DNA of 62,341 nucleotides, the filler included, from Hausera hauseri (lineage: Eukaryota): assembly GCA_046269625.1 (NCBI GenBank). It is 13 parts of 13 records of this genome, joined end to end, with 100 filler letters (N's around TTAATTAATTAA, not from the genome) between each part and the next. Parts side by side here need not be neighbours in the genome. Positions count along the whole stretch, not along the records: positions 1 to 5,859 come from JBJURY010178862.1; 12 more parts are not named here. The stretch is one strand, 5' to 3'. Positions 10 through 3,299 of the stretch are shown here, piece by piece (the first letter of the stretch is position 1; each line of letters opens with the position of its first letter). The position numbers and the translations under genes are program-made. The notes below the pieces were generated by a model that saw only the letters and a program-made list of their open reading frames with translations, made no database searches and had not been told where the DNA came from.

Positions 10-1231
10 TTAATCTATGTCCATTTTTGACCAAGTTGTTTGGCTACTTTCTTCTGAAAACTGAAAATATATCACTCGTCTTTCTATAAGGCTTTGGAAA
101 ACTGGACAGTTCGCTGTTTGATTTGAACACTTCTCACATGTTTTCATATGACCGCAAGGTAAAAAGATGACCTGTGCTACGTATACATAGCAGATCACAC
201 ATTCGAGATCACGTAAATAGAGATTATCAAGAATATTTTGTTCCGGTTCCCTTTCTTTTTGCGAAGAAATAAAATTTAAATTCTGAAGTAATTCAAACGC
301 ATTGATGACCAATCCGGTTGAGTTTCTGTTCGATATTTGATATATTGCAGTATATCTTCACGCTTTGCAGGGTGTCGAGATATTACTGAGGTAGCTAGTG
401 GGCTATCTTGGTAACTTTCGTAGAGATTTCCGATATTGAATTGTATTGGACATTGCTTCTTAGTATGATTATCAGATATTCTATATATTGAGTATTCACA
501 TTTGTTGATGTGCAATATTGTCGGGCATCTCTGGTCAATGTGTTCTAGCCAATATGTCTCTTTCAAACACTTTGTTCATTTAACATATTGCACTCCTTCC
601 TTGAATATCAATATCAATCCTTGTTTAGCTAAATGCTTGATATTTTTATTTTCTTTAAAAGTTAACTTCCTCTTCTGCACTGTGTCTGAAATCAAATATG
701 CATTTTCTTCCGCTGCATTATCCGTTGAGTAAGTTATCTTTACTGATATTGTTGTGTCATAATTTGTATCCTTATTTAAATCAGGTCTTTTAACAAAAGC
801 ATCTATGAGCGTTATATCACTGACATCGAGATTTAGTAAATAAGGGCAGATAGCATGTGATTTCTTATGTATTTCCTTTGGTCAATCTTTTGTTTGTTCA
901 AATTGAAATTCTCCTTCACAATAAATGAATTTAATTTGTCCTTTTGTAGTTCTGTATGATCCGCTTTTGGCGTATGCTTGTAATAGTTCTTCTGGAATGG
1001 GCGAATTTGAGTATTTTAAAAACGAAATCTTTCTGTTTTGTGTATCTCTCATGAAGTTATCTAGTACTATAGCCTTGGAGTAGCTTATCCGTCTTTTAAT
1101 AAATGATGCTGGTCCAAACTGTCTGTTCTGATAATGTAGTAGATATTGTACTGTATTGGGTTGAGTTGATTTCGCATACTCTTGTTGTTTAGGAGTTTGG
1201 AATTTTAGTTCCCTCTTTCTCTGCATTCCTG
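10..1231 (-). pseudogene. IAP-like gene (2 BIR domains + C-terminal RING), disrupted
   Basis: One frame from 1226 to 276 gives BIR1 (RKISF..YAKSG..IKFIYC..H....CP) and BIR2 (RKLTF..LAKQG..VK*TKC..W.EH...CP), with in-frame TGA at 882-884 and 576-578. A frameshift leads into an IAP-type RING (CVIC..VIFLPCGHMKTCEKC..CP, ORF 10..312). Acceptor tttcAG at 1233-1232. Confidence 0.85.
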
Positions 1232-1289
1232 CTGAAATACAATATACTCAATTAGTTCTAATTTGATTAAACGTCAACATTAAATTTAT

Positions 1290-1583
1290 TTATAAATTCT
1301 TTATTACATAAAACCTTTGATCATATTGAAACCGTTTATTGTCCGCACGACACACTGGGCAAGTAGTTTTAATGGCTAACCATTCCTTTATGCAGTGGCG
1401 ACAAAACTGATGCTTGCAAGAGACCAGTTCCACCGGGTCCAGACAAATAGTGCATTCCTTTCCCACGAGGGTAAAGGTCCCGTATGGGTTATATATGGTA
1501 TAGCTGTTTTTAGTTGTAGTATTGTAGTATAATGGAAATCCGTGGCTCAGTGTATGTATTTGACTCGTACGGTGAGGTAGACA
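1290..1583 (-). CDS. small C3HC4 RING-finger protein (not in ORF track; no ATG)
   Basis: Manual translation gives ...GKECTICLDPVELVSCKHQFCRHCIKEWLAIKTTCPVCRADNKRFQYDQRFYVIKNL*, with AATAAA right after the stop. Confidence 0.8.
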   Translation of the reverse strand, partial: CLPHRTSQIHTLSHGFPLYYNTTTKNSYTIYNPYGTFTLVGKECTICLDPVELVSCKHQFCRHCIKEWLAIKTTCPVCRADNKRFQYDQRFYVIKNL

Positions 1584-1623
1584 TTAACAAAGCAAAATGA
1601 ACAAATTGTAATAACCAATTTTA

Positions 1624-2003
1624 TTAATTTTTAAAATTTAAGACTACATATGACTGTGGATTTCTCCACTCGTCCGGCCAGCTATCAATATTCAGATACG
1701 TGGTTAAACCTCCCACAGTATAAAAATCCACTTATTCGAAGCAAAAAGGACACAACCGATAAAACTGTAGATGCTCATATATACATTTCTGACAAAATAC
1801 ATGTCGGCAAGGGAGGATAACTACATCGTCTGCTACTAGTTTAAAGCATACCCAGCAAAAGGTGCACATTTTCCTACAACACGGGCAATTATTCTGTTCA
1901 TTAAGCCAAGTGTCTATTCAAGGTTTGCAGTACTGGTGGTGACAAGGTAATGTTGTCTTTTGTTCCTTTATGTCCTCTAAACAGATGGGGCAGGTTTCGG
2001 TTT
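1624..2003 (-). pseudogene. tandem double-RING protein (not in ORF track)
   Basis: CPICLED..LPCHHQYCKP*IDTWL....CPCCR then CWVC..ILPCRHVFCQKC.......CPFC. TGA at 1918-1920 and TAA at 1732-1734. Acceptor ttgtAG at 2005-2004. Confidence 0.8.
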
Positions 2004-2054
2004 CTACAATTAATAAAGATTAACACTCGTTAGATACAACACTCAAAATTATAT

Positions 2055-2299
2055 TTATTTATTGTTAATACAATTATTCAAATTAACTAAGTTGTTAATT
2101 TCTTCCACTTCGTCTTCTGTCAATGCACAAACTGGGCATAGGAAAAAATACTTCTCGTCCATTGTCATAATATCCAGACTAGTTTGTTCTCCACAGTAGT
2201 TACATTCGAATAAATCATTTTCTTCTCCTAGGCTTTGGATAAAATTGCACAACGGACAAAATCCTTGATTTTCACTTAGTTGCTGGCATATTACACATT
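2055..2299 (-). CDS. small protein with four CxxC pairs (double zinc ribbon)
   Basis: CVIC..CPLC..CNYC..CPVC. Acceptor ttttAG at 2301-2300. AATAAA overlaps the stop. Confidence 0.6.
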
Positions 2300-2495
2300 C
2301 TAAAATCAATACGATTAAATCCAATCAATCATTCGCATTGTATTTAATTTTCAAATTCCTGATTTTGTTCTAATACTGTTTACCAATTATCAACGCTTCT
2401 TAATGCATCCGGCAATAATTCCCTAATTATTCCTTTTCATTCTATTCACTCATCATCAATTCCACCAGAAGCAAATTACAGAATTTATTTATCAA

Positions 2496-2791
2496 TTACA
2501 ACGGCATATAGACCAGTCCGTTAGGTCCGAACACGTACAAATCGTTTGGGTCTCTTTCTATCTCAATCTTTGGCAATTCTTCATTCGCCTCATAGTCTGG
2601 GATCACCACTACGGTGGTTCCCCAACACTGGTACGAGCTCGTTTTCTTCCTACAGAAAGGACACGTTTGGCTCTTCATCAACCAACGGTCCGCGCAGTTG
2701 ACGCACATAATGTGTGTGCAGCGCAGTAATGCATAATGTCTGCCCAATAATACAAAACAGATTTCGCACTGCGCTGAGTCGTAGCTGCCAT
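2496..2791 (-). CDS. C3HC4 RING-finger protein
   Basis: Extending the ORF upstream gives CEICFVLLGRHYALLRCTHIMCVNCADRWLMKSQTCPFCR. Acceptor tttAG at 2793-2792. An in-frame stop lies just upstream and there is no in-frame ATG before the RING. Confidence 0.8.
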
Positions 2792-2879
2792 CTAAATATC
2801 AAGTCAATGTGAAATTTCTTGCTCCACAATTATTAATCAATCCACTAATAGTATCTTTCTTATAAGAAGTGAATGGTGT

Positions 2880-2896
2880 CCTCACTTGGGGCACCA
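2880..2896 (-). promoter_or_regulatory. primer-binding site, complementary to the 3' end of elongator tRNA-Met
   Basis: TGGTGCCCCAAGTGAGG on the minus strand, 7 nt after ...CCACAACA (candidate LTR end at 2904). Confidence 0.7.
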
Positions 2897-3299
2897 GTTT
2901 ATATGTTGTGGTACAGGGGTTATTAAAGTTAACCTTACGGCGTACCCACATATAAAGGACGGTTTTGGTTGATGACACATGTTTCCTGGTTTCCAGCGTT
3001 TTATTTGTTCTTACGTCTCCGGATGTGCTTGAAGTTATAGGGTAATTTTTATGGTGCGGTGGTGATCCGTCCGATAATTCATTATTCTTAGAAACTAGAT
3101 AGTGTCCATCATCCTCCTGCTATCCAAAGCGATTATAATGACAATAAAACGGGTATTGTTAAAGAAATACGCTTTTATACTTTGTTATTATATTAATCTT
3201 ACCTCTTATGAATCACTTTCCTTAATTCTAACTCTTTCTCTGCCCTAAGCTTTACATTATTAATACACTAACTTCCTTCTTATAGATTTCTTGTCTCTA

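Follow-up and report, generated by a model that had tools for sequence, protein, structure and literature searches.

How could five short reading frames with RING, zinc-ribbon and IAP signatures be expressed from the space between the primer-binding site (PBS) of an LTR retroelement and the position of gag? Retrotransposons are generally thought to carry little besides gag, pol and env. The window, meaning the whole 62,341-nt stretch of DNA from Hausera hauseri (GCA_046269625.1), is made of 13 contigs joined by spacers, and the assembly is fragmentary. The part analyzed here was positions 1-5859 (JBJURY010178862.1), and its features are collected in Table 1.

Table 1. Features of positions 1-5859, in order along the minus strand
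Feature	Positions	Strand	Description
3' end of an upstream internal region	5692..5859	-	open frame running into the polypurine tract
Polypurine tract (PPT)	5693..5705	-	13 purines; 1 nt before the TG of the LTR
LTR	2904..5691	-	about 2.79 kb; ends TGTT at 5691...AACA at 2904
Candidate 5' exon in U5	2938..2980	-	ATG 2980 + donor 2949, or ATG 2951 + donor 2938; predicted only
PBS, tRNA-Met(CAU) type	2880..2896	-	17 nt, starting 7 nt past the CA of the LTR
Cassette 1	2496..2791	-	C3HC4 RING + acidic tail; zf-RING_2 E 7.8e-10; AATAAA at 2489
Cassette 2	2055..2299	-	four CxxC pairs, putative double zinc ribbon; AATAAA overlaps stop
Cassette 3	1732..2003	-	double RING, one internal stop; zf-C3HC4_2 E 4.4e-18, 2 stretches; AATAAA at 1625
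Cassette 4	1290..1586	-	RING; AATAAA at 1305 and 1290
Cassette 5	10..1231	-	intronless IAP: BIR, BIR-like repeat, UBA-like helices, RING; in-frame ATG at 1226

LTR anatomy and related copies

The LTR, PPT and PBS anatomy on the minus strand (5859..2880) is very probably genuine. An LTR-like end at 2904 followed by a tRNA-Met PBS had been claimed in an earlier note, and both were found as described. The gap of 7 nt between them exceeds the usual spacing. The other end of the LTR is fixed at 5691 because the PPT at 5705-5693 is followed by TG there; this PPT is an addition to the earlier note, which had not reported one. The LTR holds no ATG-started ORF longer than 40 aa on its sense strand and has a TATA-like motif at 3039 and AATAAA at 3005; the R/U5 boundary would also lie within it. 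No Pfam match was obtained for the open frame at 5692..5859, no Rfam match within positions 1-5859 and no tRNA gene in the window. The first 12 nt of the PBS mismatch each of two Met_CAU entries (PMC13524379 supplement 1) at 2 positions.

When further loci with this PBS were scanned, an LTR-like junction was present at none of 8 loci in one scan and at 1 of 36 in the other. At this one (L023), an identical 17-mer PBS follows an ACAACA end and precedes an ORF labeled gag-like by eye, which gave no Pfam match and no significant match to the gag of the window. A second locus, L050, has an LTR/PBS junction similar to that at 2904/2896. Neither a RING motif nor a BLAST match to the contig or to proteins of the window was detected at any of 38 PBS loci (the 36 and two of the 8).

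The contig has a single LTR, and the window begins 9 nt beyond the stop of the IAP. Genes for gag and pol (PR-RT-RH-IN) were confined to window contigs not linked to this one; one of these, at 24071-28089, carries a piece of env ahead of PR-RT-RH-IN. For the RT of another contig of the window, no relative was confirmed in viral_contigs (0/1).

One public sequencing run (X1), which looks like DNA, was compared with positions 1-5859. It gave 3388 matching records, of which 165 were 99+% alike, 601 were 95-99%, 1326 were 90-95% and 1296 were <90%. Most pieces were 80-99% alike, and cover peaked at the LTR ends and over the IAP. Summed depth, which is not a copy number, was 1,262-3,725 over the IAP, 669 over the first RING, 5,912 in the PBS bin and 37,407 in the PPT bin (5685-5859), compared with 3-7 for the X1 contigs identical to the window. 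Loose ends occurred near 5698 and 5751 in this deepest bin, i.e., 5692..5859 is a short conserved stretch common to many divergent elements. These results show that many related copies of the element exist, and the multicopy nature of the RING/IAP cargo was borne out by thousands of related pieces. With the PPT, the terminal repeats, the PBS junction common to the independent loci L023 and L050 and the deep X1 cover, the retroelement context is firmer than in the earlier note. The best explanation is a decayed copy of a repeated Ty3/gypsy-type LTR retroelement, which may be non-autonomous.

Five cassettes behind the PBS

Five head-to-tail cassettes lie on the minus strand where they had been reported, the first of them 88 nt from the PBS, with spacers as short as 51 and 58 nt and with some stops overlapping AATAAA. 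The assigned types held for the RING cassettes, with matches above the curated Pfam cut-off at 2499-2798, 1735-2001 (two RINGs, read with X in place of one stop), 1293-1583 and 13-357. The double zinc ribbon was upheld as far as its CxxC pairs go; its Pfam matches (2058-2297) were all below the cut-off (E 0.004-0.035), its Atlas matches were weak and to unnamed proteins (recognition 2174, under 2300), and its single-sequence fold model had a pLDDT of 43. Word-limited homologue searches found no candidate for cassettes 1 and 3. Outside the IAP, damage in this copy amounts to one stop in the double RING and the lack of an in-frame Met in cassette 4. By motif and family knowledge, the RING cassettes would encode E3 ubiquitin ligases.

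The IAP of cassette 5 is interrupted by stops at 884-882 and 578-576 and by a frameshift between 357 and 279. Its C-terminal RING was recovered (zf-C3HC4_3, E 8.5e-12), as the earlier note had it; of the two BIRs named there, BIR1 (E 0.012) did not reach the Pfam cut-off, and the other had no Pfam match. This other, BIR-like repeat bears Cys and His in the alignment, and Pfam gave a single BIR stretch; the UBA-like region weakly matches the UBA region of cIAP1 (i-E 0.11). Two homologues, P0003 (403 aa, 42%) and P0004 (252 aa, 52%), are natural and stop-free. P0003, a free-standing call of 403 aa on a contig of 15,990 nt, has a BIR above the cut-off (E 6.5e-6), gave BIR fold matches with its structure model and conserves the Met of the IAP. 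In a profile search against 1.84 billion representatives, the only 2 proteins at E<1e-30 were already in the query profile. Relatives of P0003 were confirmed in none of 31 stretches from viral_contigs and none of 156 from metagenome_contigs. The IAP belongs to a divergent family.

Putative splice acceptors, phase and start codons

The earlier note had placed AG acceptors before 2791, 2299, 2003 and 1231, each leaving 2 nt ahead of the first full codon, and this arrangement is present. Their description as pyrimidine/T-rich applies in part, in that they are T-rich and not strongly pyrimidine-rich, and the acceptor at 2791 is weak. The acceptors at 2003, 2299 and 1231 ranked 1, 2 and 3 among 183 sense-strand AGs under hand weights that were set after the sites had been seen. 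They were also the best AG of their own spacer under all three scores used, two of them unweighted, the same-phase NAGNAG twin at 1228 included. The strongest belongs to cassette 3 and has a CTAAC branch motif; that of cassette 2 is strong, and cassette 5 has a NAGNAG acceptor with a CTAAT branch motif. The acceptor at 2791 ranked 20 of 183, was top in its spacer under one score of three and was matched in score by 36-79% of shuffles. Three antisense AGs scored 9.9-10.9, exceeding all but one of the claimed acceptors. The T-rich tract of cassette 4 does not end in an AG, in agreement with the reported lack of a clean acceptor.

In a null drawn from real LTR segments, the top AGs were open and in the same phase in 138 and 148 of 20,000 draws (~0.7%), and in none of 20,000 when the observed scores were also required. 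The earlier note had placed AATAAA at or just after the stop of the first four cassettes; it was found there in three of them, compared with 16 of 118 TAAs in the LTR, whereas the double RING has it some 105 nt past the stop. These statistics suggest that acceptors, phase and polyadenylation sites are probably real for three cassettes. On positions 1-5859, run X1 gave 14 joints, none at an acceptor or donor; they say nothing on splicing because the run looks like DNA.

Cassettes 1 to 3, three of the four headed by an AG, have no in-frame ATG before the first Cys, as had been noted. Out-of-frame ATGs occur at the 5' edges of cassettes 1, 2 and 4 (2791, 2298 and 1584), the last out of frame with the RING. 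Near the start of cassette 3 all three frames lack an ATG, and cassette 1 has no near-cognate start codon either. Two of 10 ATG-donor pairs were open and in phase 1, which is chance level given that 10 pairs were available, and the choice of a leader is thus ambiguous. The candidate exon sits in a predicted U5 stem, the U5/PBS fold being not significant (z -1.33). Two X1 contigs (depth 20 of 80) have a one-base insertion beside 2939, which would throw the 2951-2938 leader out of phase if nothing offset it.

Proposed expression of the array and known systems

We favor, at a probability of about 0.45, a cassette-splicing model in which one LTR-derived coding leader is joined to alternative phase-1 cassettes. 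The region behind the PBS would be an accessory battery in which three cassettes encode RING proteins, one a zinc-ribbon protein and one a captured IAP. Transcription would begin in the R region of the LTR, a U5 donor would be spliced to one among several T-rich AG acceptors, and the RNA would be cleaved at the AATAAA closing the chosen cassette, giving short subgenomic mRNAs without the PBS. For the cassettes that have no ATG, the start codon would come from a short leader that is coding and ends in phase 1; the IAP could alternatively start at its own. As E3 ubiquitin ligases and an inhibitor of apoptosis, the products may sustain the cells that express them or eliminate restriction factors of the host. 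We infer the splicing, the identity of the leader, read-through to gag-pol and the protein functions; likewise, the host-manipulating ligases and complex-virus-like program of the earlier note would follow from domain families. Several points speak against the splicing model: full-length RNA would have to escape cleavage at the LTR signal and at four polyadenylation signals inside the element, the acceptor at 2791 is weak and cassette 4 has none, the IAP conserves its own Met, three cassettes have an out-of-frame ATG at the 5' edge, and in the MDG1 sORFs, the nearest case that has been studied, long reads showed no splicing.

The strongest competing account of the missing start codons is that the cassettes had ATGs of their own, lost in frame through damage to this copy, and were expressed from unspliced RNA in the manner of MDG1 (alternative polyadenylation with leaky scanning or re-initiation) or by splicing of a non-coding leader. 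In four of the five cassettes an ATG (2791, 2298, 1584 and 1226) does lie no more than 6 nt from the T-rich tract, the one of the IAP is conserved as well as in frame, this copy has frameshift damage elsewhere, and MDG1 offers a precedent. We nevertheless consider this account unlikely. It requires separate frameshifts within about 25 nt in cassette 1 and 3 nt in cassette 2, compared with one in the roughly 400 codons of the IAP relative to its homologue; the ATG of cassette 2 shares bases with the codon of the first Cys and is created by any A in the position before it; and cassette 3, with the best acceptor, has no ATG nearby. A passive origin would account directly for the combination of acceptor, polyadenylation site and missing ATG: last exons of host RING genes would have been taken up by template switching and, the IAP perhaps excepted, never expressed as a program. 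The failure to find homologues of cassettes 1 and 3 in the word-limited searches fits such cargo, as does the ~100-fold depth difference between cassettes, which indicates that the block is not stable across copies. Uptake of this kind appears distinctly improbable in view of the compact layout, whose 51- and 58-nt spacers and AATAAA-overlapping stops resemble compacted viral genes, of the single orientation and functional theme of all five cassettes, and of an IAP that diverged homologues preserve at full length, with neither introns nor stops.

Two further explanations place the origin of the cassettes outside the element. Assembly could have joined foreign cassettes to the LTR through its repeated ends; for the order PPT-LTR-PBS, either elements must stand in tandem or LTRs have been collapsed, the assembly consists of fragments, and among the 8 X1 pieces listed none spans the PBS or PPT junction by 31 nt. 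Such a chimera is very improbable, as the PBS and cassette 1 are so close and as a collapse would join the LTR to its own PBS side, leaving the cassettes behind a PBS all the same. Insertion of an iap/RING block derived from a baculo-, nudi- or malacoherpesvirus-like large DNA virus, with the splice-like signals as AT-rich noise, is likewise very improbable. Such viruses do have IAPs, and the P0003 model matches viral IAPs in BFVD; these matches share 11-25% identity, no nearer than the 17-34% seen for cellular BIR matches, the viral_contigs scan confirmed no relative, and ATG-less cassettes with 51- to 58-nt spacers leave no space for independent viral genes.

Under the cassette-splicing model, the separately expressed panel of RING ligases and an IAP would be a counter-defense kit whose substrates would reveal host restriction factors. 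The plug-in design of leader and phase-1 cassettes would show how a retroelement gains and swaps accessory genes, a step toward complex viruses. More tentatively, there may be an invertebrate lineage of LTR retroelements with swappable cassettes, in which an LTR micro-exon gives the start, any phase-1 module of acceptor, ORF and polyadenylation site behind the PBS becomes a new gene, and an arsenal of E3 ligases and an IAP is carried and exchanged against host defense, much as a complex virus would do.

Among systems with which the array can be compared, fish foamy-like ERVs were rejected, having a Lys, Asn or Thr PBS and accessory genes behind pol or env. Daidara is a giant gypsy lineage; a literature search on this name found no paper. 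The combination of RING/IAP cargo, alternative polyadenylation and leader splicing was not found in the literature searched. Cassette 5 resembles cIAP1, XIAP and baculovirus IAP-3 in having BIR and a C-terminal RING and differs in being divergent, intronless and inside a retroelement. The single ingredients are precedented. According to PMC6431247, Burro/GYPSM1, a giant gypsy of planarians, has BIR, RING-containing AIR1 motif, BCL2, MATH and SUMO-like cargo, and in D. tigrina one element carries an accessory ORF ahead of ORF1. Burro thus is also an LTR element with cargo linked to apoptosis and ubiquitination, and its env lies upstream of PR-RT-RH-IN, as on the window contig at 24071-28089. 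Burro elements exceed 30 kb and have this env between gag and the protease. Its cargo domains are parts of a polyprotein of 4,873-5,140 aa, whereas here five separate short ORFs with their own stops lie between the PBS and the position of gag; section 7 of PMC6431247 describes no array of acceptor/polyadenylation cassettes. MDG1/412 (PMC11952523) likewise has small accessory ORFs between PBS and gag, and an internal polyadenylation site gives a short transcript while full-length RNA reads through. These are two, a helix-turn-helix-like sORF1 and a FAST-like transmembrane sORF2, with no RING or IAP, in contrast to the RING, zinc-ribbon and IAP cassettes here, and long reads gave no splicing. 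In errantiviruses, env takes its start from a short leader peptide joined on by splicing, or even from an AUG that is itself split (bioRxiv 2023.08.03.551782). This is a precedent for a start codon given by a spliced leader, with one target ORF at the 3' end there and several alternative terminal cassettes 5' of gag here.

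An LTR element with five cassettes

The contig that carries the RING/IAP array is the first one (1-5859); its IAP stop lies 9 nt from the start of the window. The window's contigs are short, with N spacers between them, and neighbouring contigs are therefore unlinked; the remaining contigs hold transposon pieces for the most part. The cassette array belongs to an LTR element. The five head-to-tail, minus-strand cassettes described in the earlier note were confirmed on this contig, as was the LTR-like end with a tRNA-Met PBS: a polypurine tract, TGTT...AACA ends and a 10/12 match to Met_CAU are present. 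The Met_CAU entries are those of PMC13524379 supplement 1, and the PBS falls within the mismatch limit used in that paper. The PPT-LTR-PBS order reflects either a tandem element with one common LTR or the merging of two LTRs by the assembly. A TATA-like motif at 3039 and AATAAA at 3005 give a putative layout of U5. Across the 2.79 kb of the LTR sense strand, no ATG-started ORF of >40 aa was found. The ends of the PBS (region 2874-2896) are self-complementary.

Features of the window
Feature	Position	Strand	Remark
Polypurine tract, 13 nt	5705-5693	-	then TG at 5691
LTR	5691 (TG) to 2904 (CA)	-	2.79 kb, TGTT...AACA ends
PBS, 17-mer, tRNA-Met type	2896-2880	-	2 mismatches in first 12 nt to each of two Met_CAU entries
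RING, cassette 1	2499-2798	-	Pfam above cut-off, E 7.8e-10
Double RING, cassette 3		-	Pfam E 4.4e-18, two stretches, above cut-off; single internal stop read as X
RING, cassette 4	1293-1583	-	Pfam above cut-off, E 1.8e-10
RING of IAP, cassette 5	13-357	-	Pfam above cut-off, E 8.5e-12
Accessory frame, 421 aa	31481-30219	-	C-terminal hydrophobic segment
Accessory frame	starts near 30108	-	directly behind strong T-rich AG
Accessory frame, exonuclease-like	29650-29231	-	by eye; without Pfam support
Accessory frame	29010-28190	-	
Polinton-like DNA polymerase B piece	10431-12832	+	Pfam E 2.4e-5
piggyBac-like transposase piece	59199-60628	-	E 1e-28
mariner-like transposase piece	50182-50938	+	by eye
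Non-LTR RT piece	54140-55349	-	by eye

Pfam upheld the earlier RING calls in cassettes 1, 3, 4 and 5, whereas the zinc ribbon called in cassette 2, which has four CxxC pairs, gave only matches below the cut-off. Over the motif, the RINGs in cassettes 1, 3 and 4 have 32-39% pairwise identity and thus represent either old paralogues or independent captures rather than recent duplicates.

A metagenome scan with the 17-mer PBS gave 36 loci, and a single one, L023, has the 17-mer directly after an ACAACA end. In this locus (1-3044), the LTR end and identical PBS are followed by a 430-aa frame, labelled gag-like by eye and without a Pfam match; RING cassettes are absent, and the first and last 105 nt of the contig equal each other. 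Locus L050 (1-1493) has the same junction, with agreement at 25 of 31 aligned positions. This contig, filed under a bacterial MAG, resembles an animal LTR end with a tRNA-Met PBS and is probably host contamination.

On contig 24071-28089 (minus strand) lies a decayed gypsy-type piece with protease, RT, RNase H and integrase, preceded by a fragment of a Monjiviricetes-type fusion glycoprotein (Pfam E 2.5e-19). Behind the protease, a stretch resembling dUTPase was seen by eye (no match in a Pfam search). Contig 28190-32155 (minus strand) carries an integrase piece and then four accessory frames; it is a second accessory array, which may also be spliced. At 15800-19549 (plus strand), frames with long tails of low complexity resemble gag (Retrotrans_gag E 0.0025; CCHC knuckle E 1e-6), and 5960-9423 contains a degenerate ACGA tetranucleotide repeat of about 867 copies.

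Candidate acceptors, polyadenylation signals and start codons

Candidate acceptors were ranked with one hand-weighted score, whose weights were chosen after the sites were known, and two unweighted scores. With the hand-weighted score, 2003, 2299 and 1231 take places 1-3 among 183 sense AGs and 2791 comes 20th; all four top their own spacers (3, 10, 8 and 11 AGs), but 3 of 120 antisense AGs reach 9.9-10.9. With the unweighted scores, the top AG is still 2299, 2003 and either 1231 or its same-phase NAGNAG twin 1228, and for cassette 1 it shifts to other phases. Thus, three of the same-phase T-rich AGs proposed in the earlier note stand under all scores, and 2791 does not. The four top AGs were all open and in one phase in 1-3 of 4000 shuffles, depending on the score. 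With length-matched segments of the real LTR as the null, 138 and 148 of 20,000 draws had the top AGs of the three robust cassettes open and in the same phase; none did once the observed scores had to be reached as well. CTAAC and CTAAT, which we take to be branch-like, are located upstream of 2003 and 1231, respectively.

An AATAAA at or just after the stop, described in the earlier note for the first four cassettes, is present in cassettes 1, 2 and 4; in cassette 3 it lies about 105 nt downstream. This rate of 3/4 compares with 16/118 for TAAs in the LTR (binomial probability about 1%, hand calculation). The sequence suggests that acceptor, phase and polyadenylation signal exceed chance for three cassettes, in tests that are partly post hoc.

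A U5 leader could start at ATG 2980 or 2951, which with five GTs give 10 open pairs. Two of these are in phase 1 (2980 with 2949, 2951 with 2938), equal to the chance expectation. A one-base insertion beside 2939 in two contigs of the public sequencing run X1 (depth 20 of 80) is evidence against the 2951-2938 leader being universal. A long predicted stem with the LTR end (2899-2955; z -1.33, non-significant) spans the candidate ATG and donors and could offer another reason for conservation of the leader bases. An out-of-frame ATG lies at the 5' edge of cassettes 1, 2 and 4, and these ATGs may instead be true starts put out of frame by frameshifts. For cassettes 1 and 2, the frameshifts would have to fall inside about 25 and 3 nt, whereas the IAP, a disrupted copy with two stops, shows one in about 400 codons. 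Because of this density, own starts are kept as a rival explanation but rated below a spliced leader. For cassette 4, an own start with a frameshift is quite plausible. The IAP cassette needs no leader, since its homologue P0003 shares the start Met of the window copy.

Relatives of the IAP and of the element

Two IAP homologues were found among 260 candidates: P0003 (403 aa, 42% identity, 97% cover), whose contig is 15,990 nt long, and P0004 (252 aa, 52% identity). The IAP profile gave 33 matches at E<=1e-10 among 1.84 billion proteins, mostly RING-only; two of them, P0006 and P0080, also have the N-terminal segment and both repeats. In P0003, Pfam detected one BIR above the cut-off and a RING, and its predicted structure (pLDDT 54) has matches to solved BIR domains and, at 11-25% identity, to viral IAPs. 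The family profile has cIAP1 as its best match (E 4.6e-32), with a weak stretch in the UBA region (i-E 0.11).

Run X1 consists of contigs, of which 3388 records were at least 80% alike to a window stretch (99+%, 165; 95-99%, 601; 90-95%, 1326; <90%, 1296). Contigs identical to the window have a depth of 3-7. Summed depth, which is not a copy number, peaked at 37,407 in the PPT bin, followed by 5,912 in the bin of the PBS and 1,262-3,725 across the IAP; it was 669 in most of RING 1, 72-189 in cassettes 3 and 4, 5-35 in cassette 2 and 0-13 in most of the LTR body. The element has many divergent relatives, to which the LTR ends are common and the cassettes to very unequal extents. Differences from the window are mostly transitions. 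Among the rows listed, the base inside one internal IAP stop differs in nearly all X1 copies, indicating that this stop is probably private to the window copy.

Proposed expression and known systems

The reading rated most likely, at about 45%, is that LTR RNA is spliced from U5 to an acceptor and ends at that cassette's polyadenylation signal. One of several acceptors would be chosen, yielding subgenomic mRNAs that lack the PBS and encode three RING proteins, one zinc protein and an IAP, and part of the RNA would read through into the rest of the element. Such an element would also have a leader and linked gag-pol, and its products would have ligase and anti-apoptotic activity. The cost is that five signals must be read through, whereas MDG1 elements pass one (PMC11952523). 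A plug-in system of phase-1 cassettes serving an E3/IAP arsenal is more doubtful.

The combination was not found in the literature searched, which was without Repbase, the original Burro paper and most subscription journals, and an earlier description may exist; the available sections of PMC13524379, PMC8532177, PMC5210030 and PMC5512871 do not describe RING/IAP cassettes. Rotifer elements carry enzymatic ORF3s (PMC5408684). Burro elements have BIR, RING-type, BCL2 and MATH cargo within a giant polyprotein and, in D. tigrina, one upstream accessory ORF (PMC6431247); the array has similar cargo but lacks the Burro-defining features tested. The env-before-pol order of Burro is matched by contig 24071-28089, which is unlinked to the RING contig. 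MDG1 has two sORFs ahead of gag that use alternative polyadenylation and no splicing (PMC11952523); the array resembles them in its working but lacks the MDG1-defining features tested. In errantiviruses, splicing joins env to a short leader (bioRxiv 2023.08.03.551782), a likeness to the splicing proposed for the cassettes.
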